The translations under genes were made by a program, and so were the position numbers. From IMG/VR virus record IMGVR_UViG_3300012347_000612, positions 1 through 40,543 of that record: a DNA stretch of 40,543 bases; one strand, given 5' to 3'. A model generated the notes under the pieces. It did not search any database. It was not told the origin of the DNA and saw nothing but the letters and a program-made list of their open reading frames with translations. Shown here piece after piece: positions 2,825 through 36,655 of this stretch. Numbering within the stretch: the stretch's first letter is position 1; each line of letters starts with the position of its first letter. This stretch comes from a virus (Duplodnaviria; Caudoviricetes).

Positions 2825-3181
2825 ATGACCATGAACCAAGCACCCACAGCCGGAGCCATCAAGCGGGCGAAAAAACAAAGGCGTTTGGATCACGCATGGA
2901 GTCTCACAGGTGGCAGGTGCGTCTATTGCAACTCCGAAACGCCCACCATCCTGCGCACAGTCGATCACTGCCTTCCCCGCTCTCACGGAGGATGGTCCAC
3001 AAGCTCCAATCTTCTCCCGGCCTGTTACCATTGCAACAATGCTCGTGGCACCACGTCCCCCGCTTCGCGTCTTGCGCATCCGCGGTGGACGACACTGGTG
3101 AAGCAGATGGAAGAGAACGCCGATGCGCTGGCACCGCCGCCCCAGCGGCTGGCCAGCAAGAAGGACGTTCCCGGCGGTTGA
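2825..3181 (+). CDS. HNH endonuclease
   Basis: CVYC...TVDHCLPRSHGG...NLLPACYHCNNARG; stop codon lies inside the attC-like site at 3112-3201. Confidence 0.88.
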   Translation: MTMNQAPTAGAIKRAKKQRRLDHAWSLTGGRCVYCNSETPTILRTVDHCLPRSHGGWSTSSNLLPACYHCNNARGTTSPASRLAHPRWTTLVKQMEENADALAPPPQRLASKKDVPGG

Positions 3182-3201
3182 CCAGCCGCGCCTTGTTCGA
3201 T
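3112..3201 (-). other. attC-like recombination site (head-operon cassette)
   Basis: Imperfect inverted repeat AACgccgatgcgctggcaccgccg...cggcggttgaccagccgcgccttGTT with extra unpaired bases on one arm; GTTcgattt (3195) is the reverse complement of aaatcgAAC (3544-3552). Confidence 0.75.
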
Positions 3202-3551
3202 TTCCCGAATTACCAACCGACTCCGATACCATGAATGACACCAACGCATCCGCCCTTGTGGGCAAGGCCATGAAGCAAAACGCGCAACTTCGCAACAAGC
3301 TGGAAAGCGTGCGCGGTAAGCTGCAAACCCACATCTCCGACATCAAGCGCGAGGTCGATCAAATCGACGCAGCCCTGAAGGTGGAATACACCGACTGGAT
3401 CGCCCTACTGAAATGGCAGGATCTGAAATGGGTGTGCATCGCCTGCGTGAACGTCCGCGACATCGACGACGATACGCCGGATGACTTCGACCTGGCGCTG
3501 CCGATCCCGTCGCCGGAGAGCCTTCCGGAGTGGAACGGTTGGTAAATCGAA
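3118..3551 (-). mobile_element. Gene cassette E (434 bp) at the second attI-like site
   Basis: Bounded by crossover triplets at 3116-3118 and 3550-3552; complementary R boxes; carries one ORF. Confidence 0.7.
3231..3545 (+). CDS. Hypothetical protein (cassette E cargo, coiled-coil N-terminus)
   Basis: ORF MNDTNASALVG...; the frame is also open from ATG 3123 inside the attC, so the start is uncertain. Confidence 0.7.
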   Translation: MNDTNASALVGKAMKQNAQLRNKLESVRGKLQTHISDIKREVDQIDAALKVEYTDWIALLKWQDLKWVCIACVNVRDIDDDTPDDFDLALPIPSPESLPEWNGW

Positions 3552-3584
3552 CAGCTTATTATCCCGACCAGACTGCGAATAAAT
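3546..3584 (-). other. Second (orphan) attI-like site
   Basis: 3550-3582 matches 34006-34038, which abuts the IntI start, at 29 of 33 nt. Confidence 0.7.
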
Positions 3585-3700
3585 TTCCCGGCAGCGAGTG
3601 CTGCCGGAAATCCCCTCCCGCGGGCGCGTCGCCCAGGTGGAGGCTGGAATCTACCTTCTGAGGGGTTGGATCCAGCCACACAGCGGGAGGGTTGCTTTAT

Positions 3701-3815
<115 letters not shown>

Positions 3816-3820
3816 CCGAC

Positions 3821-4234: not shown

Positions 4235-5764
4235 ATGTCCACCCGCGCCAAGAAATCCCGCCGCCACCAGCGCGCCGCCGCAGAACTCCCCGCCGGTGCC
4301 CCCTCCGCATTGAGCTGGGGGTCCAACTATCAGGGAGCCCAGTGGTCCAGCGACCGCGGCATGATCCGCTGGTCCACCATCGACCAGCGCGAAGAACTCT
4401 CCAACTACGAGCGCGGCGAGCTCCTCCGCCGCATCCATTTCCTCAAGGCCCACTTCGGCTTCGCCCTCGGTCTCGTCAACAACTCCGCCGACCTCGTAGG
4501 CTGGCACGTCCCCCAAGCCCAGAGCGGTGATGAGGAATGGGACGATGCCGCCGAGCAAGCCTTCCAATTCTCCTGCGGCGAGGAATCCGCCTTCGACGTG
4601 GCTGGCAAGTTCGACTACGAGACCGCCCAGCCCATGCTCATGCGTGCCGCCTTTACCGACGCGCACATCTTCACCGTCATGACCAAGTGGGAAGGCACCG
4701 GAGCCGCCCGCTTCGCCTTCTACGAAGCCTCCCAACTCCGCAACCCCAAAGACGCGGGGAAAGCCTGGCGGGACGGCATCAAAGTCAGCAAGACCGGCCG
4801 CCACCTCGCCTACGGCTTCCACGATCCGGAGTCAGACACCGTCGTCCAGATCCCCGCCGCCTCCGTCATCTACTTCGGCGAGTTCGACAACGCCCGCCAG
4901 GACGCCCCCGTCCCCAAGCTCGCCCACGCCGTCCTCAACTCCCAGGACATTATGGAAATCTGGGGCTTCCAGAAAAAAGCCGTCAAAATCTCCTCCCTCT
5001 CCGGAGCCGTCATCGAGCGCGACGCCGGCGCGCAACCCTCCGCCGCCCGCCAAGGCATGGTCGGCCCCCGCACCACCGCCACTCAGGACGGGGCCAAATT
5101 CCAACAGGAAAACGTCTGGGACGGCGGCCAGATCCACAAACTGGAGCCCGGCGAAAAAGCAAAAATCCTCGCCGATAACCGCCCCTCACCCGAGCAACGC
5201 CAGCTCATCCTCGACCTCAAGCGAGACATCGCCTACGGCTGGGGCCTCCCGCTCGAAGTCGTCGATGCCATCGCCGAGCTCACTGGCCCCGGCATCCGCT
5301 TCGTCCTCGACGTTGCGGGGAACTGGATCGACTGCCGCCGCCAGCGTCAGCAGAAGTGGCTGCGGAAAATCTGGCGCTACACCATCGCCTGCGAGATCGC
5401 CGCCGGCCGCCTCGCCCTCCCGAAATCCACCGATGGCAAAAAGGGCCGCTGGTGGAATGTCAGCTTCACCGGCCGCCGCCTCCTCACCATCGACCGCGGC
5501 AAGGAAAGCCAATCCCGCCTCAACGAGATCGAAGCCGGAGTCGGCACCTGGGCCCAGTGGGAGCAGCTCGACGGCATGGACTGGAAAGACCGCCTCAAGC
5601 AGCGAGTCCGCGAGGGCCGCGCCAGCTTCGCCGAGTGCGGCATCCTCGATCCCACCCCCGAGCAACTCCACGCATTCGTCTTCCCACCCCGCCAAGGCTC
5701 TGCGGCAGCGGCGGTGCCACCCGAGGAATCCAAGGAACCCGCCAAGGAAAAGCCACCCAAATGA
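4235..5764 (+). CDS. Portal protein, lambda family
   Basis: 509 aa; position; DGIKVSKTGRHLAYGF and IHKLEPGEK...NRP segments typical of lambda-type portals. Confidence 0.88.
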   Translation: MSTRAKKSRRHQRAAAELPAGAPSALSWGSNYQGAQWSSDRGMIRWSTIDQREELSNYERGELLRRIHFLKAHFGFALGLVNNSADLVGWHVPQAQSGDEEWDDAAEQAFQFSCGEESAFDVAGKFDYETAQPMLMRAAFTDAHIFTVMTKWEGTGAARFAFYEASQLRNPKDAGKAWRDGIKVSKTGRHLAYGFHDPESDTVVQIPAASVIYFGEFDNARQDAPVPKLAHAVLNSQDIMEIWGFQKKAVKISSLSGAVIERDAGAQPSAARQGMVGPRTTATQDGAKFQQENVWDGGQIHKLEPGEKAKILADNRPSPEQRQLILDLKRDIAYGWGLPLEVVDAIAELTGPGIRFVLDVAGNWIDCRRQRQQKWLRKIWRYTIACEIAAGRLALPKSTDGKKGRWWNVSFTGRRLLTIDRGKESQSRLNEIEAGVGTWAQWEQLDGMDWKDRLKQRVREGRASFAECGILDPTPEQLHAFVFPPRQGSAAAAVPPEESKEPAKEKPPK

Positions 5765-8747: not shown

Positions 8748-8981
8748 ATGCTCGCCATCGTTCTCGGCTTCACCGAACCCGGTTCCCAGTCACCCGTCCA
8801 GGTCCTCTACGCGGGCCGGAATGCCAGCGAGGCCCGGGCCATTGCGGATGCGCCGCCAGTCGGCATCCTCCGCACCGAGTCCCTCAGTAATCCAGTCACC
8901 CACCACAAGCGCCACTTCCCCGGAAACGTCGCCCCGCCCTCGGAGGAGCTGCTGGAAGTCGCTCCCGCCAAGAAAAAATAA
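8748..8981 (+). CDS. Small hypothetical virion/head protein
   Basis: 77 aa ORF after the capsid gene; basic C-terminus. Confidence 0.65.
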   Translation: MLAIVLGFTEPGSQSPVQVLYAGRNASEARAIADAPPVGILRTESLSNPVTHHKRHFPGNVAPPSEELLEVAPAKKK

Positions 8982-9019
8982 CTCTTTCCCGGACACACAC
9001 ACACACCCTGAGAAAACCA

Positions 9020-9057
9020 CAGCCCCTCGCCCCGCCAGGCGGGGGGTTGTTTTTTTT
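9020..9057 (+). terminator. Rho-independent terminator
   Basis: GC-rich stem cagcccctcgcc/ggcggggggttg followed by a T-run. Confidence 0.7.
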
Positions 9058-9172
<115 letters not shown>

Positions 9173-9198
9173 ACCTACTTTGACACCCCGCCCCCAGC

Positions 9199-13825: not shown

Positions 13826-13946
13826 GAACATCGAACGTCGAACGTCGAACGTCGAACATCGAACATCGAACATCGAAGTAAGAACCTCTTCCTCTTCATT
13901 CTCTTCACTTCGACGTTCGATGTTCGATGTTCGATGTTCGACGTTC
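13826..13946. repeat. TCGAAC heptamer inverted-repeat element (full copy)
   Basis: Array, spacer, inverted array. Confidence 0.9.
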
Positions 13947-13962
13947 CCACCCTTTCCCGCCC

Positions 13963-15775: not shown

Positions 15776-15896
15776 GAACATCGAACGTCGAACATCGAAC
15801 ATCGAACATCGAAGGAATATGCTTCGCGCTTCTTCATTCTCTTCCTCTTCCTCTTCACTTCGACGTTCGATGTTCGATGTTCGATGTTCGACGTTC
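15776..15896. repeat. TCGAAC heptamer inverted-repeat element (full copy)
   Basis: Array, spacer, inverted array. Confidence 0.9.
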
Positions 15897-15917
15897 AACC
15901 TCCCCCTCTAACCACTC

Positions 15918-24434: not shown

Positions 24435-24638
24435 ATGCCCCCACGCCGTCCACCGCCGGATCCAGCCCAAGTCCGCCAGGCCCAGCGCATCCTCCGCCTC
24501 CCTCAGACCGGCATCCTCTGCCGCGCCACCATCATCGCCGCCGCCAAGCTCACCAAGTCATGGCACCGCGGCCCCAGCCTTGTCGGACAAGTCCTCGAAC
24601 ATCGAACATCGAACGCCCAACATCGAACATCGAAGTAA
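24435..24638 (+). CDS. Small hypothetical protein ending in a repeat element
   Basis: 67 aa; C-terminus derived from the heptamer array. Confidence 0.4.
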   Translation: MPPRRPPPDPAQVRQAQRILRLPQTGILCRATIIAAAKLTKSWHRGPSLVGQVLEHRTSNAQHRTSK

Positions 24639-24718
24639 TATGCCTTCGCGCTTCTTCATTTTCTTCCTCTTCCTCTTCACTTCGACGTTCGATGTTCGAT
24701 GTTCGATGTTCGACGTTC
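24595..24718. repeat. TCGAAC heptamer inverted-repeat element at the lysis/integrase convergence
   Basis: Full copy; contains the stop codons of both converging ORFs. Confidence 0.9.
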
Positions 24719-25891
24719 CAGAAGTGCAAACCACTTCCGCCCTTCCCCGGGAGGCAACGGCCGCCGATAAGTCGAGCGAATGATCCCCGGCGAGTTCCCC
24801 GCCTCCTCCGCCACCTGGTCCATCGAGCCTGCCACCTGGAGCCGATAGGTGATGCCCGAGTGGCGCAGCACATTCGGCGGCCAAGTCAGCCCCGCCGCGC
24901 GCGCCAGCCCGGAAACCACCCCCTGCGCCGTGGACCGACAAATCCGTTTCGACTTCACCATCCGCCAATCCTCCTCCCGCGCCTGCGCCTCCCGCAACAT
25001 CCGCACCATCGCCGCCGGGATCGGCACCCAGCGCTCCCTGGACGTCTTCCCCGCCACCGCAGCCGTCACATGCAGCAGCCGCTGCTCCCACAGCACATCC
25101 GCCCATTTCAGCCGCCCACATTCCGATGGACGCAATCCCATCCATCCTCCCAGCAGTAGGAATGCCAAATGCTCCGGAGCCCCCTTCCTTACCGCCGTCA
25201 AGAGCACCTTCCCCTCCGCCGGCGAGAACACCACCGGCGCCTTGTCCGCCAGCCGTGGCCGCTTCATCGCCCGCGTCGGCAACGACCGCGCCTCCGGCCA
25301 CAGCCCCAGCACTTGGCACCGCCGGAAAAACGTCGTCCACCGCGCCATCCTGTTTCGCAGCGAACGCGCCGCCAGCCCCGGCAGCGAAATATGCTTCACC
25401 AGCTTTTCGTAAGTCATCTCGAGCAACGGAAAATCCGGATGCACCCGCCGCCAAGTCCGCAGCTCCTGGTGCAGATCCACCTTGTTCCGGCCATGCACCT
25501 CCAGCAGCACCATCTCCGCCGCCTCGTCCAGCGTCACATTCCGCACCGCCGGCGGCCCGTGCTTCATGAAAAACTTCGCCGCCTCCTCGATCCGCTCCAC
25601 ATCCCCCAGACACTCCGCCGCCCGCTCCACCGCCGCCAGCAGCCGCCCCGTGTCCGGATGCAGCCGCTCCAGCCACGCCAACCGCTCCATCCGCAGAGGC
25701 GTCACCCACTCTTTCCCCGTGGCCTGCTGCATTTCCCGGACTTTGCGCTTGGCGTAATCCCGCGCTTTTTCCACCGTCGCCCGAGTTGTCCGCATCACCT
25801 TCCCGTCCTCATGCCACTTCAGCGCACAGCACCCATTCGCCCGCGGATACAACCGAATCTCCGCGCCGCCATATTTCACGATTTCCACCAT
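24677..25891 (-). CDS. int: Prophage integrase (tyrosine recombinase)
   Basis: GLRPSE (R), AGKT (K), LRHS, AGNS...STY (Y); adjacent to attP. Confidence 0.92.
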   Translation of the reverse strand: MVEIVKYGGAEIRLYPRANGCCALKWHEDGKVMRTTRATVEKARDYAKRKVREMQQATGKEWVTPLRMERLAWLERLHPDTGRLLAAVERAAECLGDVERIEEAAKFFMKHGPPAVRNVTLDEAAEMVLLEVHGRNKVDLHQELRTWRRVHPDFPLLEMTYEKLVKHISLPGLAARSLRNRMARWTTFFRRCQVLGLWPEARSLPTRAMKRPRLADKAPVVFSPAEGKVLLTAVRKGAPEHLAFLLLGGWMGLRPSECGRLKWADVLWEQRLLHVTAAVAGKTSRERWVPIPAAMVRMLREAQAREEDWRMVKSKRICRSTAQGVVSGLARAAGLTWPPNVLRHSGITYRLQVAGSMDQVAEEAGNSPGIIRSTYRRPLPPGEGRKWFALLERRTSNIEHRTSK

Positions 25892-25910
25892 TCCCCGGAT
25901 AAAGCATTTT

Positions 25911-26090
25911 TTTACACCGCTTTACACCCAAAAAATCACAAATTTACAGGAAAACCGCTTTTTCCGCATTCATAACCCATTGATTTCCCGTCGCAGCAAA
26001 GGTAGTTTTCGGGTTCGAGTCCCACAGCCGCTATCTCGATTTACAACGACTTACGAAGGCAGTTAGGATTTTACACCCGATTTACACCCG
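25911..26090 (+). other. attP: tRNA 3'-end core (26011-26033), arm-type repeats and an IHF-like site
   Basis: gggttcgagtcccacagccgcta reads as T-arm plus acceptor strand; TTTACACC at 25911, 25921, 26070 and 26081; taacccattgatt (~25973) is the reverse complement of WATCAANNNNTTR. Confidence 0.8.
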
Positions 26091-26111
26091 ATTTTGAAAA
26101 GGGATGGCATG

Positions 26112-26144
26112 AAAAAACCCGCGCTCCGGGGTGGAGGCGGGTTT
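26112..26144 (-). terminator. Rho-independent terminator after the antirepressor
   Basis: aaaaaacccgcgctcc...ggaggcgggttt stem with an A-run on the + strand. Confidence 0.65.
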
Positions 26145-26169
26145 GGGGAGTGCGGCGTTTTGCCGGCGT

Positions 26170-26910
26170 TCAGGTGGGCTCGGCGCTGGCGAAGGCGGCG
26201 ATGGGGGGAAGCTGGTAGGAGATTTCCCGGCCGGGGATGCGGATGGCGCGGCCGGTGGAAATGGCGCGCTGCATGATCTTGCCCACGGTGGCGCGCTTGG
26301 AGGGATCGGTGCCTTTGCGGAGCTTGTGGCGCGGGGGCATGGCGTCGGCGAGCTGGAGGGCGGTGTAGGCGCTGTCTGGCTGCATGACGTCGAGTAGCTC
26401 CTGGACCTCCACATCGGTGATGGTGGGGTGGTAGCCAGTGGAGGAGCGAATCGGGATGGCGTGGAGCGGTGCTTGGGGCTGGCAGAGCTTCATGGCTCCC
26501 TTGGCGGCCATGTCCGGGGAGACGCCCATGCGGATCTGATCGGCAATGAGCCCGAGATAGGCCTGGTGCCCGGTATTGTAGCTGCCAGTGCGCCGGATCT
26601 GCGGGAGGACTTCGGAAGTAACCCAGCGGGTGAATTCCCGGGCAATGGGCTTGCGGCTCTGGAAAATGACGGCATAGAGTCCCGATTCGTTACAGAGGTT
26701 CATCGTCTGTTCGCGGCCCATGTTGTCGATGACCTTACTACTAGTAAGGTCATCCTGATAGATCCGTTCACAGACTCGGGTCGGGTTGCCCATCTCAAAA
26801 ACTTTGCACAGATCGGCGATAACGAACCAAGGGCCGTCTGAGCGCATTTCGGTGCGGATGAGGTTTTCTCCGAAGAGGAATGGAATCATGGTGGTGGTGT
26901 CGGTATTCAT
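26170..26910 (-). CDS. BRO-N domain antirepressor
   Basis: PWFVIADLCKVF, NESGLYAVIFQSRKPIAREFTRWVTSEVLPQIRRTGSY. Confidence 0.9.
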   Translation of the reverse strand: MNTDTTTMIPFLFGENLIRTEMRSDGPWFVIADLCKVFEMGNPTRVCERIYQDDLTSSKVIDNMGREQTMNLCNESGLYAVIFQSRKPIAREFTRWVTSEVLPQIRRTGSYNTGHQAYLGLIADQIRMGVSPDMAAKGAMKLCQPQAPLHAIPIRSSTGYHPTITDVEVQELLDVMQPDSAYTALQLADAMPPRHKLRKGTDPSKRATVGKIMQRAISTGRAIRIPGREISYQLPPIAAFASAEPT

Positions 26911-26953
26911 TTTGTTTGGTTGCTAGGATTCAGTTTTTGTGAAAGATGGGGGG

Positions 26954-27325
26954 ATGGAAGACTTGTCGGATTTCTGGTTTTTGTGCTTTCTGGGTTACGT
27001 GGTGAATGTGGCAGCAGCGTGGGCGGTGGGTAGTTCCAGGGGCAGGGGGGAGGCCGGTTTGCTCTGTGGCTTGGTCTTGCCAGGCATCGGGATGGTCGTG
27101 GCGTTGTTTTTACCGAAAGAGGGGCTGGCACTGGAGGAGCGGAAACCTGGCGCGCCTGTTAAGCGAGCGCGGGCGGAATACAAGAAGCCGGACCCAATCG
27201 AGGAATTTGAAGCGCGGGAGCAGGCAAGACGGGCGTTTGAGGAAGGGCCGGTGCATTTGCGCGGAAAGGTGCGGGAGCCGGTGGTGGTGCCTTTGCGGCG
27301 GGCGAAGATGAAGGAAGATGAGTGA
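26954..27325 (+). CDS. Membrane protein (two TM segments) in the immunity region
   Basis: Two hydrophobic segments around GSSRGRG; possible superinfection-exclusion role is inference only. Confidence 0.6.
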   Translation: MEDLSDFWFLCFLGYVVNVAAAWAVGSSRGRGEAGLLCGLVLPGIGMVVALFLPKEGLALEERKPGAPVKRARAEYKKPDPIEEFEAREQARRAFEEGPVHLRGKVREPVVVPLRRAKMKEDE

Positions 27326-27418
27326 TTTACTACGAGATCCATGGCGCATGGCGGGAGTGGCAGTAGATGCACTTGTGGAAGGGCTGGATGATAAGCGGCA
27401 GCTCGGGGGCTGGTGGGA

Positions 27419-27877
27419 TTACCGCAGGGGCTTTGACCTTCCGGAGGGATAGGTGCCGCTGCCGCGAGATGGCTTGTTCTCGCCGTCTCCATGATCTGCG
27501 GCGTAGGGGGGGAGAAGCTGGAGTTCGCGGCTGCGTGCCCATTCCTCGGCGGCGGCATTGAGGTGGTCCACGGCCCATGCGGAGGTGGTGGGGGCATCGC
27601 TGGCTTTGGCGGCGGCGTCCCAGAGAGCGTGCTTTTCCGGATCGACAAGGAGGGTGATGCGGTCTGGTAGATTTTCGGTAGGGGAAGCGGCTTCCGCGGC
27701 TCTTGCCCGGGCAATGGCATCCATGAAGGCGGTGAACATGCGCTTGGAGAGTTTCTTGCCCTCGGGGGCTAGGCAGTCCCGGACGGAGTAGTACGAGTAG
27801 CCGGATGCGTCGGCTAACCATTTGCGGTCTTTTTCGGCGGCGATGAGGGCCGCTTCGATTTGTTTTTTTGTGTCCAC
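27419..27877 (-). CDS. Putative phage repressor
   Basis: HTH-like DRKWLADASGYSYYSVRDCL; divergent from the early operon across three operator-like palindromes; GTG start at 27877. Confidence 0.65.
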   Translation of the reverse strand: MDTKKQIEAALIAAEKDRKWLADASGYSYYSVRDCLAPEGKKLSKRMFTAFMDAIARARAAEAASPTENLPDRITLLVDPEKHALWDAAAKASDAPTTSAWAVDHLNAAAEEWARSRELQLLPPYAADHGDGENKPSRGSGTYPSGRSKPLR

Positions 27878-27904
27878 AGGGGGATTTATACCACGGAAAG
27901 GGGC

Positions 27905-27977
27905 TAAAGAAAGAAAATTTCTGTTAAAACAGAAAAATGCTGTTGACGAGACAGCAGAAGTCTGTTTTTGTTCCGGC
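27905..27977. promoter_or_regulatory. Immunity switch: three ACAG-N7-CTGT operators and a rightward promoter
   Basis: Operators at 27910-27924 (one mismatch), 27929-27943 and 27951-27965; TTGACG at 27943, 29 nt before ATG 27978. Confidence 0.75.
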
Positions 27978-28169
27978 ATGCAAACGCAAGACGATGCCGA
28001 GCCCGCTCCGAGATCACTGCCGGAAATCCCGCTCGATGAGCTTTCCGCTACGACGAAGGATTACCTGCTGGCCCATGCGGTGGCGGGGACCTCGCCGGCG
28101 GAGTTGATCATCGGGGTGCTGGACAAGGCGGCGGCGAAGGCGGGCTTTGAACCGGACAAGGCGGCCTAG
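27978..28169 (+). CDS. Small early regulator (Cro position)
   Basis: 63 aa; first gene of the rightward operon; ends in DKAA. Confidence 0.6.
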   Translation: MQTQDDAEPAPRSLPEIPLDELSATTKDYLLAHAVAGTSPAELIIGVLDKAAAKAGFEPDKAA

Positions 28170-28204
28170 CAAAACCCCCAACGACAATTTCACCCGGACA
28201 AACA

Positions 28205-28642
28205 ATGAAACAGGAAAGTGTGTGTGCGATGAAAACGAGTCCAACGAGGAATGAAACGGCTCTTCCGGACAGAAGAGGGACGGCGGGGGGTGCCACGGCT
28301 GCGGTGGGTGCCGCGGCGGATTCTGAGGGTGCCCCCCGCCAACTCGCGGCGAACGTCGAACATCGAACATCGAACGTCGAACATCGAAGGGAAGAGAAGT
28401 TGGAGAAGGCTCTGGTGCGGCGTGCTGCGCGGGTGCGGATGGAACGGGCGGGGGTGCGGCTTTCGGTGCAGGATGGACTGCGGGTGGGCCGGCGGTGGAT
28501 GGCGCTGATGGATGCGGCGGTGAGAACGACCGGGCAGGATTTCGTTTCGGCCATGGCCTCGGGGCCGGTGATCTTTTTGGGAACATCGAACGTCGAACAT
28601 CGGACATCGAACGTCGAAGGAAGAGAAAGGAGCGCGGCATGA
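28205..28642 (+). CDS. Hypothetical protein containing two in-frame heptamer-repeat insertions
   Basis: NVEHRTSNVEHR segments at 28351 and 28581. Confidence 0.5.
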   Translation: MKQESVCAMKTSPTRNETALPDRRGTAGGATAAVGAAADSEGAPRQLAANVEHRTSNVEHRREEKLEKALVRRAARVRMERAGVRLSVQDGLRVGRRWMALMDAAVRTTGQDFVSAMASGPVIFLGTSNVEHRTSNVEGRERSAA

Positions 28643-28884
28643 GCCGGATGGTGAAGCGGGCGGAGGTGGCGCGGTTCCTGGGGAAGGACGCGAGCGAGAT
28701 CGACCGGATGATCGAACAGGACGGGATGCCGCACATGAGCCTGCCAGGGCCGACGAAGCCGAGCGTGAGGTTTTTCCTGCCGGACCTGCACGGCTGGCTG
28801 GTGAAGTTCAACCGGGGATGCGCGGGTTTTGCCCGGCTGGAGGAGTTCGAGCGGGCGTTCTGCGAGGCGCAGAAGAAGAGCTGA
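28639..28884 (+). CDS. Excisionase-like HTH protein
   Basis: KRAEVARFLGKDASEIDRMIEQDGMP...VRF..DLHGWL winged-HTH pattern. Confidence 0.7.
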   Translation: MSRMVKRAEVARFLGKDASEIDRMIEQDGMPHMSLPGPTKPSVRFFLPDLHGWLVKFNRGCAGFARLEEFERAFCEAQKKS

Positions 28885-28924
28885 GTGATTGAAGAAGATT
28901 CTACCTAACCAAAATAACAAAAAC

Positions 28925-29095
28925 ATGCAACACGATCCGATGATTTACATACTGGCGGCAGGGTGCCTTGGGGCGACTTTGGGATTCATGACTTGCGCGG
29001 TGCTCTCCAGCAGCCGGATCCGACGGGCGAATATGGAGGGGTATCTGGAGGCGGTCCGGTTCCAGAAGAGCATGGAGAAGGAGGTGGGGCTGTGA
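28925..29095 (+). CDS. Small single-TM hypothetical protein
   Basis: Hydrophobic N-terminal helix. Confidence 0.55.
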   Translation: MQHDPMIYILAAGCLGATLGFMTCAVLSSSRIRRANMEGYLEAVRFQKSMEKEVGL

Positions 29096-29397
29096 GTGTC
29101 TCATACCGGAGGACTCAGGTGCTGAAGCCGAAGAAGAACCGGGGCAGCGCGGGGAATGCGCGGAGCGGTTTTGCGGGGATGCCGCCGGCGGCTCTGGATA
29201 CGATAAATATGGAGCAGTTTTGCCGGGCCTGCGACCGGATGCTGGCGGAACATGTGCCGGGCTACCGGGTGTTCAACTTCGCAGGCAAGGACGTGACGCG
29301 GGAGATGATGGAAAAAGCACCGGAGAAGGTGCGGGAAGAGCGGGTGGTGACGCGGGTGTTTTGGAGAAGCAAGCAGATGAGGGAGTGCAGAGGGTAG
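29092..29397 (+). CDS. Hypothetical protein
   Basis: GTGA overlap with the previous gene; 101 aa. Confidence 0.55.
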   Translation: MSVSYRRTQVLKPKKNRGSAGNARSGFAGMPPAALDTINMEQFCRACDRMLAEHVPGYRVFNFAGKDVTREMMEKAPEKVREERVVTRVFWRSKQMRECRG

Positions 29398-29454
29398 GAA
29401 GATAACCGCAGAGACGCAAAGGACGCAAAGGAAACGCTGAGAAGAAAGAAGATT

Positions 29455-30111
29455 ATGAACGAAGTGAATCAAAGACAGTGGCCGTGCGCGTGCATCGACC
29501 TTGAGACTCTATCGACTTCCGCGGATGCGGTGGTGCTGGAGATGGGGGCGGTGATGTTTGATCCGGCGACGCTGGAGCTGGGGCCGGAGTATCATGCGGA
29601 GGTGGAGATGAGGGCGCCGGATAACCGGCTGCGGGGAATCGACGCGGGGACGATGGTGTGGTGGGCGGAGCGGGTGAAGGAGGGGCATGATATGCCGGGG
29701 GTGTATGGGGGGGGGAGTCTGTGGGGTGCTTTGCAAGGTCTTGCGGAGTTTATGGCAAGGCATGCGGACCCGGAGGAGGTGGAGATGTGGGCGTGGGGGA
29801 GTGACTTTGATTTCGGGATACTGCGGCATGCGCATGATGAGGCGCAGATGAAGCTGCCGTGGCGCTACTCGCGCCAATGCGATGCGCGGAGTTTTTGCGG
29901 GAAGCTGGGGATCAAGCGGGTGGGGCCGGTGACTCACCAGGCACTGGCGGACGCGAAGCAGGAAGCGCAGGCGGTGATGGGGGCGCTGTTCAAGCTGGAG
30001 GCGATGCGAACATCGAACATCGAACATCGAACATCGGACGTCGAAGGAAGAGAAGGAGAAGAGAATTCTTCGGCAGCGCGTGGTGAAGATCTAACCCCTG
30101 CGGTGTCATGA
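29455..30111 (+). CDS. DEDDh 3'-5' exonuclease (Rv2179c-like)
   Basis: IDLETL, WAWGSDFDFGIL, CDARS and HQALADA motifs. Confidence 0.88.
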   Translation: MNEVNQRQWPCACIDLETLSTSADAVVLEMGAVMFDPATLELGPEYHAEVEMRAPDNRLRGIDAGTMVWWAERVKEGHDMPGVYGGGSLWGALQGLAEFMARHADPEEVEMWAWGSDFDFGILRHAHDEAQMKLPWRYSRQCDARSFCGKLGIKRVGPVTHQALADAKQEAQAVMGALFKLEAMRTSNIEHRTSDVEGREGEENSSAARGEDLTPAVS

Positions 30112-30356
30112 GTGCGGGGGATGCTTACGTGCTTTTCGAGCTGTCCGGGGGGCCTGGCTGCGGGCTGCGGCTGGCGCTGCGGCAGCAGACGGCGGAGGTG
30201 TATCTGCTGCGCTTCCCGGTGCCGGGGCGGGCGGTGGCGAAGGAGGTGTGGAGCTACGCGCAAGCCCCGCGGTCTCTGCCGGATGGGGCGTGGGTGCTGG
30301 AGGCTTGCTGCCGGGTGGGGTATGAGAATTTTTACGAGGAGGACGTGCAGCCATGA
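30108..30356 (+). CDS. Hypothetical protein
   Basis: ATGA-coupled 82 aa ORF. Confidence 0.55.
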   Translation: MSAGDAYVLFELSGGPGCGLRLALRQQTAEVYLLRFPVPGRAVAKEVWSYAQAPRSLPDGAWVLEACCRVGYENFYEEDVQP

Positions 30357-30787
30357 CGACGCGGAATGTGCATGAGTTCTGTGTGGGGCTGTGGGAGGCG
30401 CGGGAGGAATCCCGCCTGCCAGGTGCGGCGGTGATTTCCCGGGGGCTTGCGCGTGCGGTGGCGGCGGATGTGGAGGCGAGTGAGGATTACGAGCCGCACG
30501 TGGACCTGCGGGTGGTGTGGGCACAGCGGATGGTGAAGGGGCGGAACTGGCAGGTGCCGGAGTGTCGGCCGGAGGCGAGCGAGGCGGTGGAGTCGGCGGC
30601 AGCTTATCTGCTGGGGAAACCGTTTGCGGAGCGGGTGCTTACGGGCAGGGATCTGGCGGCAGGGGAGGGAAGGGAACATCGAACATCGAACGTCGAACAT
30701 CGAACATCGAAGGAAGAGAAGGAAGAGCTTGGGCTTTTCTCTTCCCTCATGACCCATCAACCCATGACCCATCAACTTCTATCATGA
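30353..30787 (+). CDS. Hypothetical protein with a repeat-derived C-terminus
   Basis: ATGA-coupled; EHRTSNVEHRTS at 30675. Confidence 0.55.
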   Translation: MTTRNVHEFCVGLWEAREESRLPGAAVISRGLARAVAADVEASEDYEPHVDLRVVWAQRMVKGRNWQVPECRPEASEAVESAAAYLLGKPFAERVLTGRDLAAGEGREHRTSNVEHRTSKEEKEELGLFSSLMTHQPMTHQLLS

Positions 30788-31542
30788 GCGACGAGATGCA
30801 CATGGAGAGTGCCTGGCGGCACCGGGATATGACGGCCATCGAGCAGTGGCACGGGCCGCAGCCGGATGAGGCGCTGATGGAGGCGGAGGATCTATCCGGC
30901 GGCGTGGGTTTCCCGGCGCGGGTGGAGATGATGGACCGGCTGAATGTATATCTGTTCGCGGACGGGCGGCTGGGGGAGTGGGAGTTTGTGGCGGCGCGTG
31001 GGTATGACCTGATGGTGAATTTCGCGCCGAGCCTGCTGGTAGGGCGTGGACGACAGGAGATGGCGCGGCTGCTATGGGTGCGGCGGGAGCAACGGGGAGA
31101 GGCACTGGGGGAGTTCATGGAGTTCCTGCGGGGTATCCCGGGCGGGGCGGTAATTCTGGCGCGGCTGCTGGGTTTCATTTTCCCGGGGACGGGGAGCCGG
31201 TGGCTTTTCCGCGGGACGCAGCGGGCGTATATCATGGCGAGGGCGTGGCAGCCGTGGCTGGTGACGCAGGAGGGCCGGGAGCTTTCCTACGAGGATCTGG
31301 CAGAAGTTTTCGAGGGGCAGGAGCTAACGACGCCGAAGGCGCGGAACCGGGCGCGGAGCCGCTGGAGTGCGAGAGTGCAGGAGGTGCTGCGCAAGCCGAT
31401 AGAAGCAGCCGGCGGGACGGTGCGATTGCAGTTCTCGAAGAGCGCCGGGGCCAGGGAGCAGATGGCGGCAAGCGCGAGGGGGAACCAGAATAGGAAGACG
31501 AACGCCGGTGTCCTGGCACATGCCGACGAGAAAACTAACTGA
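30784..31542 (+). CDS. Hypothetical protein, possible HTH transcription regulator
   Basis: ELSYEDLAEVF segment; stop codon lies inside attC1. Confidence 0.55.
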   Translation: MSDEMHMESAWRHRDMTAIEQWHGPQPDEALMEAEDLSGGVGFPARVEMMDRLNVYLFADGRLGEWEFVAARGYDLMVNFAPSLLVGRGRQEMARLLWVRREQRGEALGEFMEFLRGIPGGAVILARLLGFIFPGTGSRWLFRGTQRAYIMARAWQPWLVTQEGRELSYEDLAEVFEGQELTTPKARNRARSRWSARVQEVLRKPIEAAGGTVRLQFSKSAGAREQMAASARGNQNRKTNAGVLAHADEKTN

Positions 31543-31618
31543 CCATGGGAAACGACTTCATACTCCAAAACGCCGACGAAGGGAGTGAAGGCATGTTGCC
31601 AACGACCTCTTGTTCTCT
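31497..31618 (-). other. attC-like site 1 (122 bp)
   Basis: AACgccggtgtcctggcacatgcc...ggcatgttgccaacgacctcttGTT imperfect inverted repeat. Confidence 0.78.
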
Positions 31619-32289
31619 GCCGTCATCTTCCGGCATCTCTTCCAAATTATCAACGCATCACGATACAACGATATGAAAACAAGAATTGAACTCATAGCCG
31701 CCGAGAATCATCTCGGAGAAGCCATGCAGGATGTGTGGAATGACCGCTGCCAAGACATCGGCGAAACGCCGACATGCTTTGAAGTCCGTGGACCGAAAAC
31801 GACCCGCATCATCGCTGACTTCGAGGGATCGGCCTTTGTGCGTGATATAATCGAGACACTGGAGGCTCGCGGATGCTCTCTCCATGTTCCGCCACCGAAG
31901 GGGAAAGTGGGCGAGCTTTTTGACGATATTGCCAAGGGGTTAGGGTTGCCAGAAACTCCCGAAGAAAAAATCGCCGCTCTTGAAGAGCAAATCAGGCACA
32001 TGATCCAGCACCGGGAGAGGCTCAAGAATGACATCGGCCGACTGGAATCCAGACTCCAGAAAATCAGTGACACGATGGAGAATATCGTCGTCACAGAAGG
32101 CGAGGACGCGGGAGTGGTGCTGCTATCTACCGAAGCGCCATGTCGCTATGAAGCCGGGAGCAACGTAGCGATCTACGGCCTGCCATACTTCTCGCCGCTC
32201 GGTGAATCACTCATGGAGGTATACCATCTCGCAAGCCAAAGAGAAGCTGCCGGAACCGCTGACGAGAAGCCGGACGGTCAGGCAGAGAA
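31503..32289 (-). mobile_element. Gene cassette D (787 bp)
   Basis: GTTctctgcc (31612) is the reverse complement of ggcagagAAC (32281-32290). Confidence 0.75.
31545..31676 (+). CDS. 43-aa leader ORF starting inside attC1
   Basis: ATG 2 nt after the upstream stop; its TGA overlaps the next ATG (ATGA). Not in the ORF track because of its size. Confidence 0.4.
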   Translation: MGNDFILQNADEGSEGMLPTTSCSLPSSSGISSKLSTHHDTTI

Positions 32290-32323
32290 CGCCGAGCCCA
32301 TCCACGGCGAGAAAAATGCCTGA
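31673..32323 (+). CDS. Hypothetical protein (cassette D cargo, central coiled coil)
   Basis: 216 aa; lacks the regional G-skew; stop codon inside attC2. Confidence 0.75.
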   Translation: MKTRIELIAAENHLGEAMQDVWNDRCQDIGETPTCFEVRGPKTTRIIADFEGSAFVRDIIETLEARGCSLHVPPPKGKVGELFDDIAKGLGLPETPEEKIAALEEQIRHMIQHRERLKNDIGRLESRLQKISDTMENIVVTEGEDAGVVLLSTEAPCRYEAGSNVAIYGLPYFSPLGESLMEVYHLASQREAAGTADEKPDGQAENAEPIHGEKNA

Positions 32324-32369
32324 ATACACAATCGAGCTTATCGCCGTTGGATGCGGCGATTTGTTCATC
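32284..32369 (-). other. attC-like site 2 (86 bp)
   Basis: AACgccgagcccatccacggcga...tcgccgttggatgcggcgatttGTT with two extra bases on one arm. Confidence 0.82.
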
Positions 32370-32653
32370 CTCTTTGAATTACCCCAAGATCCCAAAATGA
32401 AATACATCGTAACCAAGCGCGAAGACGGCACCGAAGAAATCTTCATCTTCCCTGACGCTGTGCATCACAAGGACATGGCCGAAGCTGTCCAATACCTCAA
32501 AGAACATGACCGACTGGTCTATGGGAAGTGGCGGTGGATCGAACGCGAACCGATCTCGGCTGGATTCGTGAAAGGTGGGAAGTGCGTGGGTAACAGCGAG
32601 TCTCTTGGACTCCGGTCACGCCCGCAAGACTCCGATCTGCTTCCTTGGATGAA
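32290..32653 (-). mobile_element. Gene cassette C (364 bp)
   Basis: GTTcatcc (32363) is the reverse complement of ggatgAAC (32647-32654). Confidence 0.78.
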
Positions 32654-32714
32654 CGCTAGGGCTATGCCGTCCGGTGACGGTGTGGCCGATGAATCGAAAC
32701 TGAAAAGCTTATGA
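32316..32714 (+). CDS. Hypothetical phage-type protein (cassette C cargo)
   Basis: Start at 32316 (inside attC2) or 32397 (MKYIV...IFP..VHH...SAGF...C.G.SESL); stop codon inside attC3. Confidence 0.75.
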   Translation: MPEYTIELIAVGCGDLFILFELPQDPKMKYIVTKREDGTEEIFIFPDAVHHKDMAEAVQYLKEHDRLVYGKWRWIEREPISAGFVKGGKCVGNSESLGLRSRPQDSDLLPWMNARAMPSGDGVADESKLKSL

Positions 32715-32742
32715 CGGATCGGACATCAGCCCCTTGTTCTCT
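32648..32742 (-). other. attC-like site 3 (95 bp)
   Basis: AACgctagggctatgccgtccg...cggatcggacatcagccccttGTT. Confidence 0.8.
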
Positions 32743-32746
32743 GCCG

Positions 32747-32926
32747 TCATCCTCCGGCATCTCTTTTCTTCGTCTTGCGACGTATGGCCGCGAGGAAAAG
32801 CGCCTGCTGCCATTCGGGGGGCGTGCGGCTACCATCAAGCCAGGCGTAAGCGGTGGCACGAGGACACCCAAGGGCGGCAACGATCTGGGCGGCGGAATAC
32901 TCAGCAAGCGATTCGGTGAAGGACAT
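32747..32926 (-). CDS. Small Cro/XRE-like HTH protein (59 aa)
   Basis: SAAQIVAALGCPRATAYAWLDGSRTPPEWQQ; stop codon directly before the attC3 R'' box. Confidence 0.7.
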   Translation of the reverse strand: MSFTESLAEYSAAQIVAALGCPRATAYAWLDGSRTPPEWQQALFLAAIRRKTKKRDAGG

Positions 32927-32950
32927 GGCTGGACAATACCCGAAAAAGAA

Positions 32951-33010
32951 ATGTCTGCAATGCATAAAATAAATCTCGACAAGTGTCCGCAATGCAGACA
33001 CTCTTTGCGC
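32951..33010. promoter_or_regulatory. Operators and leaderless promoter inside cassette B
   Basis: tgtctgcaatgcata (32952) and near-palindrome tgtccgcaatgcagaca (32984-33000); TCGACA-17 nt-CACTCT-6 nt-ATG. Confidence 0.6.
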
Positions 33011-33271
33011 ATGTCCAACACCAACGACCGCCTCAACAAACTCTTCACCGAACTCGAAGAAGCCACCAAGGCTTCCAATCACTACGAGTTCCAATCCCTC
33101 TACGGCACCGCCGTGAGCCGCGAGGCTTACGACGCAATCTATGAGGAAGCGCTTAAGGAAATCACCATCATCCAAAAGCGCATCATCCGCACCCTCCTAA
33201 AAGCTGGCGAGCTGGCCGAACTCATCGGCCATCTCGACGCGGGGACAATCAACCGCGCTCTCCTCAAATAA
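33011..33271 (+). CDS. Hypothetical helical protein (cassette B cargo)
   Basis: MSNTNDRLNKLF...; the frame is also open from ATG 32711. Confidence 0.7.
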   Translation: MSNTNDRLNKLFTELEEATKASNHYEFQSLYGTAVSREAYDAIYEEALKEITIIQKRIIRTLLKAGELAELIGHLDAGTINRALLK

Positions 33272-33311
33272 TCACAAGCGGGGTTCGATCCCCCGCCAAT
33301 CTGGCAAGCCA

Positions 33312-33620
33312 ATGAATCCTGAAATCGAAAAGATACTAAAACGCGCTCTGGTTGGGCTGAAGATGGGTGCCGATCTGGCATACGCGACTGAGACGACAGA
33401 CTCGCAAGCCGCGATGGCTGGTGCTGTCTGCGTGAAAATCGAATCCATAGAGGAAGAGGTGAAGGCGTTTCTTGGGCGCACACTGGAGACTCAGTATGTT
33501 CCCGGAAATCCCGGATGCACGATCTTCTTTAAAAGCCAAAGAGAAGCTGCCGGAACCGCTGACGAGAAGCGCGACCGCAGTGCAGAGAACGCCGCGCCTT
33601 CCCGCCCGGAACCATCTTGA
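33312..33620 (+). CDS. Hypothetical protein (cassette B cargo)
   Basis: 102 aa; stop codon inside attC4. Confidence 0.65.
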   Translation: MNPEIEKILKRALVGLKMGADLAYATETTDSQAAMAGAVCVKIESIEEEVKAFLGRTLETQYVPGNPGCTIFFKSQREAAGTADEKRDRSAENAAPSRPEPS

Positions 33621-33745
33621 GTGACTCAAACGCTGAACTACTATGACGAATCGAAAAACATATATGATTGAGATCGAAGCTGACGGCTCGATCACGGAGG
33701 AGTCGCGCAAGATGGTGCAGGGTCCGGAACGGCATCTTGTTGGGG
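33584..33745 (-). other. attC-like site 4 (162 bp, long loop)
   Basis: AACgccgcgccttcccgccc...gggtccggaacggcatcttGTT; longer than typical attC sites. Confidence 0.68.
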
Positions 33746-34007
33746 ACGTCGCGGAGCGAGTCACCGACAAGAGTGCCGTGGAGGTCGCGAAGCCGGGAAG
33801 GCGCGGCGTTGGAGAGATCGTGGGAGCGGAAGAACTACGTGGATACATTGCCCAGCAGGACAGCGAAGCGCGGTCGAGACGGAAAGAAGCCGAAGCGCAA
33901 GGTCTGCCGAAATGGGTGATAACGCATATCAACGGAGAGCTGACCGCGCTGCGAGAATTAGGTGAATGGCTGACCGAACGGACCGGCCAGCGGAGCGATC
34001 TCTCCAA
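33590..34007 (-). mobile_element. Gene cassette A (418 bp), attI-proximal
   Basis: GTTgggga (33739) versus tctccAAC (34001-34008): 7 of 8 complementary. Confidence 0.7.
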
Positions 34008-34038
34008 CAGCTTATTAACCCAACAGGACTGCGAATAA
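33643..34038 (+). CDS. Hypothetical protein (cassette A cargo)
   Basis: Starts inside attC4 and stops inside the attI-like site. Confidence 0.7.
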   Translation: MTNRKTYMIEIEADGSITEESRKMVQGPERHLVGDVAERVTDKSAVEVAKPGRRGVGEIVGAEELRGYIAQQDSEARSRRKEAEAQGLPKWVITHINGELTALRELGEWLTERTGQRSDLSNSLLTQQDCE

Positions 34039-34040
34039 TT
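34002..34040 (-). other. attI-like site adjacent to intI
   Basis: Minus strand ...gggttaataagctGTTggag, divergent from and abutting the intI start; duplicated at 3550-3582. Confidence 0.72.
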
Positions 34041-35039
34041 ATGAAAACACTGACTGATCGTGAGGCGATTGTGGGATTGAAGAATGCACAGCTGGAAAAG
34101 GGGCATTGCTTGAATACCCGGAAATCCTACCGGGGATGGGTGATGCGCTATCGGGAGGCGCGGACGAAGCGATTGGTGCGGGATCTGCAAGGATTCCTGA
34201 CCAGGCTGGCAACGGTGGAACGGGTGAACCCGAAGACGGTAAGGCAGGCGCTGAATGCTTTGAAATTCTATCATGAGAAGGTGCTCGGCATCGAGATCGC
34301 GCCGAAGTCTTTGACGGTGCCATCCATCAATCCACACCGGAACATTCCGGTGTGGCTGACGCATGACGAGGCGATGGACCTCATCGGGCGGATGGAGGGG
34401 GTGGCTCGGCTCCAGGCGGAGATGCTGTATGGGACGGGCGGGCGGATCACGGCGCTGCTGACGCTGCGGCTGAAGGATCTGGATTTGCAGAAGGGGCTGG
34501 TGACATTCCGCTTCGATAAGGGCGGTAAGTCCCGGACGGTGCGGCTGCCGCGGGCGGTGATGCACCGGCTCCAGACGCATGTGGCAACGGTGCGGATGCT
34601 ATGGGAGGGGGACAAGGCGCGGGGAATCATCTATCCGACGGCGGCGGAGGCGGCGATGAAGAAGCTGGGCCGGGCCCGCTTCGGGACTCTGCCGTTCTGC
34701 TGGCTCTTCCCGTCCCGGGATGTGCGGGGGGCGGAGCGGTGGCATGCGACGGATCACGCTCTATCGGACGGGCTGCGCGTGGCGGCGGAGGAGGCGGGGA
34801 TCATGAAACGGGTCTCGCCGCATGTGCTGCGGCACTCGAACGCGACGGCTCTGCTGGAACGCGGGGAGAATATCCGGACGATCCAGGAGCATCTGGGCCA
34901 CTCGAATGTGGAGACGACGGAAATCTACACGCATGCGAATGGCTCTCAGGGGGTGATCTCGCCGCTGGACTATCCGCCGCTGGCGGTGCCGCGGGGAGTT
35001 TCTAACCTGGTGGCATTCGAGGGGAGGGCGAGCGCATGA
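34041..35039 (+). CDS. intI: Integron integrase-like tyrosine recombinase
   Basis: FLTRLATVERVNPKTVRQALNAL, IPVWLT..E, LYGTGGR, KGGKSR, IntI-type insertion (WEGDKARG...CWLFPS), HVLRHS, IRTIQEHLGH..VETTEIYTH. Confidence 0.9.
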   Translation: MKTLTDREAIVGLKNAQLEKGHCLNTRKSYRGWVMRYREARTKRLVRDLQGFLTRLATVERVNPKTVRQALNALKFYHEKVLGIEIAPKSLTVPSINPHRNIPVWLTHDEAMDLIGRMEGVARLQAEMLYGTGGRITALLTLRLKDLDLQKGLVTFRFDKGGKSRTVRLPRAVMHRLQTHVATVRMLWEGDKARGIIYPTAAEAAMKKLGRARFGTLPFCWLFPSRDVRGAERWHATDHALSDGLRVAAEEAGIMKRVSPHVLRHSNATALLERGENIRTIQEHLGHSNVETTEIYTHANGSQGVISPLDYPPLAVPRGVSNLVAFEGRASA

Positions 35040-35239
35040 GTGGCACGGAATGTCATGCGATGTGGCACGCGCTGAATGATGCGGTGGGGGCGGTGATCGA
35101 CGCGCGGCGGGCGATGACGCCGGAGCATGAGCGGGTGAAGCTGCGCACTGCGCTGCTGGAACTGGCGAAGGCGAAACGGATGATCGAGAAGCGTTTGCTG
35201 GAGAGCAGGGAGGTAAATGCTGAGAAGCTGAAAAGCTGA
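35036..35239 (+). CDS. Hypothetical protein
   Basis: ATGA-coupled to intI; ends in a (GCTGAAA)n run. Confidence 0.6.
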   Translation: MSGTECHAMWHALNDAVGAVIDARRAMTPEHERVKLRTALLELAKAKRMIEKRLLESREVNAEKLKS

Positions 35240-35308
35240 AAGCTGAAAGCTGAAATGAAGATTTTGAAGAGTGAGAGAAACTAACCAAACCATAGAAAAC
35301 GAAAAACG

Positions 35309-36655
<1,347 letters not shown>

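Follow-up and report, generated by a model that had tools for sequence, protein, structure and literature searches.

A candidate phage integron with backward cassette genes that share one reading frame at the attC crossover

Regular integrons, such as the class 1 system (IntI1/attI1/attC) and that of the Vibrio integrase IntI4 (structure 2A3V), combine an IntI-type recombinase carrying a characteristic insertion, an attI site located 5' of intI, and attC hairpins with an AAC crossover, an unpaired spacer, extrahelical bases opposite the AAC and R boxes matched for each cassette. All of these parts are shared by the locus described here, a cassette array in a 40,543-nucleotide viral contig of the Caudoviricetes (IMG/VR record IMGVR_UViG_3300012347_000612, positions 1 to 40,543; the whole contig is called the window). 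A regular cassette has its gene on the attC top strand, reading away from intI, with a stop at or before its own R''. The window cassettes depart from this pattern: their genes lie on the bottom strand and face attI and intI, they often begin in their own attC and finish in that of the neighbour, and intI follows as the next gene in what appears to be one operon. In the passages of PMC5027507 on cassette orientation, cassettes facing the promoter are said never to have been observed.

Other described systems share single aspects of this arrangement. The reverse integrons of Treponema denticola have the order intI-attI-cassettes, with the gene stop in its own R'' (PMC7691350, in the sections compared; parts of PMC6557892 and PMC4889954 were also drawn on), whereas the window has the order cassettes-attI-intI, with genes inverted against attC. 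Six unannotated attC-like sites were observed in phage Rctr41k (KX853513, locus L277, 6645-10097) downstream of an integrase annotated as xerD, in a Treponema-like order unlike that of the window array. Integrons and attC arrays in phage genomes were reported by Qi et al. (2023; PMC9892861), together with the recombination of phage attC bottom strands by IntI1; the compared portions of the main text on these integrons and clusters of attC sites lacking an integrase (CALINs) contain no inverted genes, in-frame crossovers or borrowed stops. In phage TJE1 from that study, a single clear detector site (1020-1071) with apparent conventional polarity was found, and it was not used in our counts.

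Translation across a junction has precedents on the top strand. According to the relevant passages, ORF-11 of attI1 depends on the inserted cassette for its stop codon, which couples translation (PMC8876359), and in the gcuF1-blaOXA-28 fusion one cassette is read in frame into the next (PMC3375312). These are one leader peptide or single cases, whereas in the phage arrangement most junctions are crossed by full-length genes, coded on the bottom strand and sharing one frame. Synthetic attC hairpins designed to be coding recombine well and were suggested as a means of shuffling modules in frame (Nivina et al. 2020; PMC7439510, passages on design); those are engineered, while in most natural phage sites the protein terminates within the hairpin instead of continuing into a second domain. 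The searched passages of PMC8352920 contain nothing on orientation, and no description of bottom-strand-coded, frame-locked cassettes was found in the literature searched, which covered few subscription journals and no supplements. The arrangement is real, widespread in one phage lineage and apparently undescribed.

The gene at 34041-35039 is classed as an integron integrase by the R-K-H-R-H-Y residues and the IntI-specific insertion of its predicted product. The catalytic residues (R135, K160, H264, H287 and Y296, with an HVLRH motif) are unchanged across 46 homologues, and the top PDB match is IntI4 (2A3V; E 3e-41), aligned over residues 22-310 including the IntI insertion. The gene is intact and has 362 close homologues among 7,999 scored candidates.

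Upstream of intI and in a second mini-array between the terminase and portal genes, five hairpins were identified, each bounded by an AAC and by a GTT 78-154 nt further on, with an AAC/GTT R box, an unpaired central spacer, extrahelical bases opposite the AAC and a variable loop. IntI cuts at the bottom-strand AAC (PMC5027507 and PMC7439510, sections on the recombination substrate), and extrahelical bases on the arm opposite the AAC are the bottom-strand signature (PMC5027507, same sections). Because the extra bases sit on the GTT arm in 5/5 window hairpins (and in 99/104 related sites, with symmetric scoring), the + strand of the window is read as the recombining (bottom) strand. The attI-like motif forms no hairpin and is conserved upstream of intI in related loci; we infer that the copy at 34006..34038 works as attI, where the R box of the adjoining cassette matches at 3/4 nt. 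Across 231 junctions, the 4 nt after the GTT and the 4 nt before the next AAC are identical at 4/4 positions in 174, as true cassette ends would be. Since the attC bottom strand and all window cassette genes lie on the intI strand, opposite to bacterial cassettes, the integron skeleton reads as conventional, with the genes backwards. On this sequence evidence, the locus has the IntI, attI and attC by which an integron can be recognised, and it differs both from regular cassette polarity and from the Treponema order.

An earlier note on this DNA had claimed that the crossover AAC is always an in-frame Asn codon. At the six AACs it named (3116, 31501, 32288, 32652, 33588 and 34006), this was confirmed: in every case the longest open frame reads the triplet as Asn, with 123-339 open codons upstream and a shorter best alternative frame at every one. 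In all six read-through open reading frames (ORFs) the stop lies 10-21 codons past the AAC. The resulting tails, each followed directly by a stop, are NADALAPPPQRLASKKDVPGG (AAC 3116), NAGVLAHADEKTN (31501), NAEPIHGEKNA (32288), NARAMPSGDGVADESKLKSL (32652), NAAPSRPEPS (33588) and NSLLTQQDCE (34006). The pairs of stops and starts that the note had listed (TGA 31542/ATG 31545, ATG 32316/TGA 32323, ATGA 32711 and TGA 33620/ATG 33643) are all present, the intI ATG follows the attI stop after 2 nt (TAA-TT-ATG), and the non-crossover GTT does occur in all three frames (1, 2, 1 and 0 of the in-site ORFs).

Other parts of the claim were narrowed. A new ATG inside every site did not hold, as site 3116 has none after its stop (3179-3181; the next ATG is at 3231). 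ATG 31545 exists, but the ORF that it opens is a 43-aa leader, linked through an ATGA to the start of the gene at 31673, and ATG 32316 is in frame and open, but in 26/30 homologues the call starts at Met 32397, outside the site. Both attI copies open as NSLL....CE-stop, as stated, but the copy at 3550 (NSLLSRPDCE, then a stop) is entered by no gene. The probability of one third per frame assumed in the note holds for cassette genes, in which an internal AAC is in frame in 186/538 cases, but not for the backbone genes of this phage (65/115 overall and 21/30 for AACG). Because the backbone genes depart from this null, the chance of the six shared frames in the window was recomputed as about 0.005-0.02, and the frame question is settled by the homologue set, not by the window.

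For this set, 276 loci were fetched by integrase, attI motif and attC right-arm motifs, none of which uses the AAC frame. The hairpin detector identified 431 sites in these loci, compared with 5 in 324,016 shuffled bases, and 231 adjacent site pairs were reduced to 188 unique ones. Groups were fixed ahead of counting, and genes were called by a codon model whose scoring ended at the AAC. The window family comprised 31 loci (window excluded), 13 junctions with an R-box match below 3/4 were dropped, and single-site loci and portal-gene false positives (L218, L221 and L246) stood outside the junction counts. Among the 84 remaining junctions, 60 are read through as Asn and 2 in other frames. In the tabulation that the note had called for, 60/62 read-throughs are in the Asn frame. 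The in-frame rate for internal AACs is 35% in the same cassette genes (43% for AACG) and 57-70% in the backbone genes of the window phage; the excess persists whichever null is used (p 6e-20 at 0.43 and 9e-8 at 0.70). At the first junction alone, the Asn frame was found in 28/29 loci. Without gene calls, the Asn frame stays open the farthest upstream in 77/84 junctions and 19/21 attI-like sites, a test partly biased by stops inside the R box.

The same frame is also the one that the sites close. An in-site stop in the Asn frame was observed in 101/104 unique attC, compared with 41 and 60 in the other frames and a mean of 67 (maximum 83) in base shuffles; a slightly different stop rule gave 100, 40 and 61. 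The position of this stop varies from codon 3 to about 30 across dissimilar sites. An ATG within -8..+12 nt of the Asn-frame stop is present in 47/84 sites and opens the cassette gene in 35, while the corresponding values for the two other frames are 13/4 and 29/16; a -4 ATGA overlap was found in 18/73. Start coupling is therefore common but not universal, and of the coupled starts proposed earlier, 47/84 sites have a start near the stop and the rest do not.

From these results, we consider it probable that the locus is a phage integron with cassette genes on the attC recombining strand in one shared AA/C frame (the slash marks the predicted cut), a frame likely maintained by selection because it gives any gene a prompt stop and, in many cases, a restart in whichever site becomes its neighbour. 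Several observations weigh against this reading. IntI scored 226 bits against its top NCBIfam family, TIGR02249, under the cut-off of 265. The seventh crossover in the window, that of the attI copy at 3550, follows gene 3231-3545, whose stop lies 4 nt ahead of the AAC, and this reduces "always" to 6/7. In the window family, 17/84 junctions have their own stop before or on the crossover, and 5/84 are unclear, with the gene call on the opposite strand; all gene calls in these counts come from our own codon model. Because 17/84 related junctions and 1/7 window junctions end by themselves, read-through is not required; the description of the sites as one-frame connectors stands for the shared frame and the in-frame stop, but not for these endings. 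No ATG lies near the stop in 33/84 sites, and 4 lack an in-site stop. The junction counts overstate independence, as sites and cassettes are related by descent. In its passages on cassette expression, PMC11511950 describes attC hairpins themselves as minor determinants of polarity. Finally, an AT-rich phage group with distant integrases has the same array-attI-intI order and shows 0/55 read-throughs.

In that AT-rich group, the 55 junctions comprised 32 own stops, 11 of the form TAA/C and 12 unclear cases, and TAAC was found at 53/55 crossovers. The viral loci of this kind include L028, L032, L035, L045, L049, L063, L072 and L082. Extrahelical bases were counted as 8 right, 14 left and 52 equal, and a longer global alignment gave 55 left and 11 right; because these counts are uninformative there, the backward layout of the group is read from the attI position alone. 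Since the AT-rich group has the layout without read-through, the frame lock belongs to one lineage, of which it is a convention. A quick IntI tree sets the integrases of the read-through and own-stop groups apart, which suggests that each of the two has integrases of its own; L163 and L197, on very long branches, probably represent ORFs picked in error. As controls, a looser detector setting found the three cassette attCs on the intI strand of a class 1 integron, with genes on the other strand, and metagenomic integrons had top-strand genes in 16/17 junctions.

The mechanism in which we have fair confidence is that the integrase inserts circles at attI beside intI, an upstream phage transcript expresses the array, and the shared frame ensures a prompt stop and often a restart. 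IntI would cut AA/C on the folded + strand, as in known integrons, and a cassette would consist of C, the attC body, the gene and AA. With this composition, a gene that lacks a stop of its own depends on the next site for one, so each cassette would bring a tail and a stop for its upstream neighbour and rely on the downstream site for its own. Newly acquired cassettes would be inserted at attI, adjoining intI and farthest from the upstream transcript, and translation that continues into the left arm would keep the untranslated hairpin RNA between genes short. Untranslated stretches reduce downstream cassette expression (PMC11511950, passages on cassette expression). Genes could likely be reordered in this way without breaking translation. 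A promoter scan of 25500-35400 gave 1 match (26040) against 2.9 expected, and no promoter was assigned. A bolder picture is possible and is put forward tentatively: a phage lineage with an exon-like, phase-standardised gene shuffler, in which every joint is an Asn in one phase, the sites bear stop and restart, intI is coupled through attI to the translation of the newest cassette, and C-termini are rewritten, as a natural counterpart of coding attC sites, of which until now just synthetic designs were known.

Signs of exchange at the crossover are seen among homologues. For the protein starting at 32397, 12/30 homologues finish with the same Asn followed by differing tails, and others stop at about this point, tail-less. 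In the pairs L172/L274, L169/L223 and L176/L003, homologous cassette genes can be aligned as far as the Asn but differ beyond it, and attC bodies that are nearly identical adjoin unrelated upstream DNA. These patterns suggest past exchange at the AAC. Among 28 homologues of the anchor gene, most have a plain basic tail at this place, and about five have N plus an attC-like tail, judged by the appearance of the protein sequence only. Among sequencing runs, one DNA run contained 5% of the words and no RNA run was listed as containing them; the DNA run yielded short contigs of relatives, with no joint cleanly removing a cassette; two loose ends at 31500 were too thin to use. Several cassettes of L163, L171, L190 and L223 resemble DNA methyltransferases, judged from the translated sequence.

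The layout could be real and its single frame a frozen accident or a filter acting at cassette birth, through copying of an ancestral site or AAC codon bias in GC-rich genes, with no selection for reshuffling. The high in-frame rate of AAC in the window backbone genes, the related types of attC bodies reused with different genes, and the anchor-gene homologues, which suggest insertions at an AAC within the last codons of a backbone gene, all fit this explanation. We nevertheless regard it as unlikely, as the cassette genes lack such an AAC bias (35-43%), 60/62 exceeds even the 0.70 null, and the scattered stop positions in dissimilar sites, nearly always in the Asn frame, are unlike copies of one ancestral stop.

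Alternatively, the swapped tails could be the point of the system, each new C-terminus retuning protein stability, degradation or binding. The earlier expectation that C-terminal tails are swapped on shuffling agrees with homologous proteins bearing different tails, of 2-30 residues, but the tails look dispensable because the conserved protein core (that of the 32397 homologues) finishes before the Asn. Many homologues are tail-less there, 14/104 tails have only 2 residues, and hairpin pairing dictates the tail sequence. A functional role is accordingly very improbable in our view, and the tails are probably a neutral by-product. That the array is a relic, or that its hairpins are RNA elements (terminators or processing sites) with cassette recombination no longer ongoing, is scarcely credible: this exact array was not met in an excised or reordered form, and as RNA the hairpins have folding energies of -26 to -54 kcal/mol, but the integrase is intact with its many close homologues, R boxes are matched per cassette, identity between related loci breaks at the AAC, and the extrahelical asymmetry is typical of DNA substrates.

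Integron cassettes are held to insert one way and to carry whole genes, and this phage family keeps backward cassettes in one of its own gene clusters, with gene end and stop codon split across the recombination point under a strong frame rule. If selection for the shared frame is the correct reading, the recombination site doubles as a translation connector, and the family offers a large natural set for the study of cassette birth, in which an attC appears to replace the stop of a gene. Should the system work as proposed, it would account for the variable tails, each beginning with Asn, of many hypothetical phage proteins, and would provide natural parts for in-frame shuffling in synthetic integrons.

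Table 1. Coordinates of the features of the two arrays in the window.
Feature	Position	Strand	Remark
Backbone "anchor" gene, 252 aa, without family match	30784..31542	+	crosses distal AAC 31501 and stops in that attC
attC	31501..31614	+ (recombining, bottom)	AAC 31501 is the R' crossover, GTT 31612 is R''; extra bases on GTT arm
43-aa leader ORF	31545..31676	+	starts in attC loop; relays by ATGA to cassette gene
Cassette gene, 216 aa	31673..32323	+	AAC 32288 read as Asn; next attC gives stop
attC, 78 nt	32288..32365	+	
Cassette gene, phrog_3988/8320-like	32316..32714	+	conserved core from 32397; AAC 32652 read as Asn
attC, 87 nt	32652..32738	+	ATGA stop/start at 32711
First ORF of two-ORF cassette, 186 aa, own stop	32711..33271	+	
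Second ORF of two-ORF cassette, 102 aa	33312..33620	+	AAC 33588 read as Asn
attC, 154 nt	33588..33741	+	long terminal loop with stop 33618-20 and ATG 33643
attI-proximal cassette gene (predicted newest)	33643..34038	+	crosses AAC 34006; ends NSLLTQQDCE-stop inside attI
attI-like site directly 5' of intI	34006..34038	+	conserved motif upstream of related integrase genes
Integron integrase IntI, 332 aa	34041..35039	+	strand common with cassette genes; ATG 2 nt after attI stop
HNH endonuclease gene, anchor of second mini-array	2825..3181	+	AAC 3116 read as Asn
attC, 82 nt, second mini-array between terminase and portal	3116..3197	+	
Cassette gene, own stop 4 nt before crossover (exception)	3231..3545	+	
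Second attI-like copy, no adjoining intI	3550..3582	+	open as NSLLSRPDCE-stop; upstream gene does not enter

The window itself is a 40.5-kb lambda-like phage contig, with a terminase gene at 743-2608, a lambda-type portal gene at 4235-5764 and a ParB-like gene at 35309. Because its closest relatives in the genome collection (67-72% identity) sit in contigs of Verrucomicrobiota metagenome-assembled genomes, the host phylum is likely Verrucomicrobiota.

Two attI-like sites per phage, one of them without an adjoining intI, were observed in the window (3550 and 34006) and in L179 (492 and 2787). As 17/27 unique attI-like sites had no intI match within 500 nt, one integrase may serve several insertion points. 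A similar 15-nt stretch is found in the window at 2800-2820, before the HNH gene, and at 3579-3600, just past the second attI copy. A hairpin at 8925-9051 (score 20) was considered as a sixth attC and left out, since its GC stem and terminal T run are terminator-like.

Two window cassettes with unlike middles have about 35 nt in common at the start (31612-31645 and 32736-32770) and about 50 nt at the end (32236-32290 and 33537-33590). The two ends of each cassette (31612-31645 with 32236-32290, and 32736-32770 with 33537-33590) are complementary far past the R box, with scores of 36 and 33 that rank 1 and 3 against a family median of 20. The complementarity may lengthen the hairpin when the cassette is circular, or it may mark a nested older site. 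A short tandem repeat with a 7-nt unit (GAACATC/GAACGTC type) and a purine-rich tail occurs in about a dozen window copies, several of which form long hairpins as head-to-head pairs; its positions are 3701-3818, 9051-9188, 13826-13962, 15776-15912, 24597-24734, 28351, 28581, 30008, 30674 and 36318.

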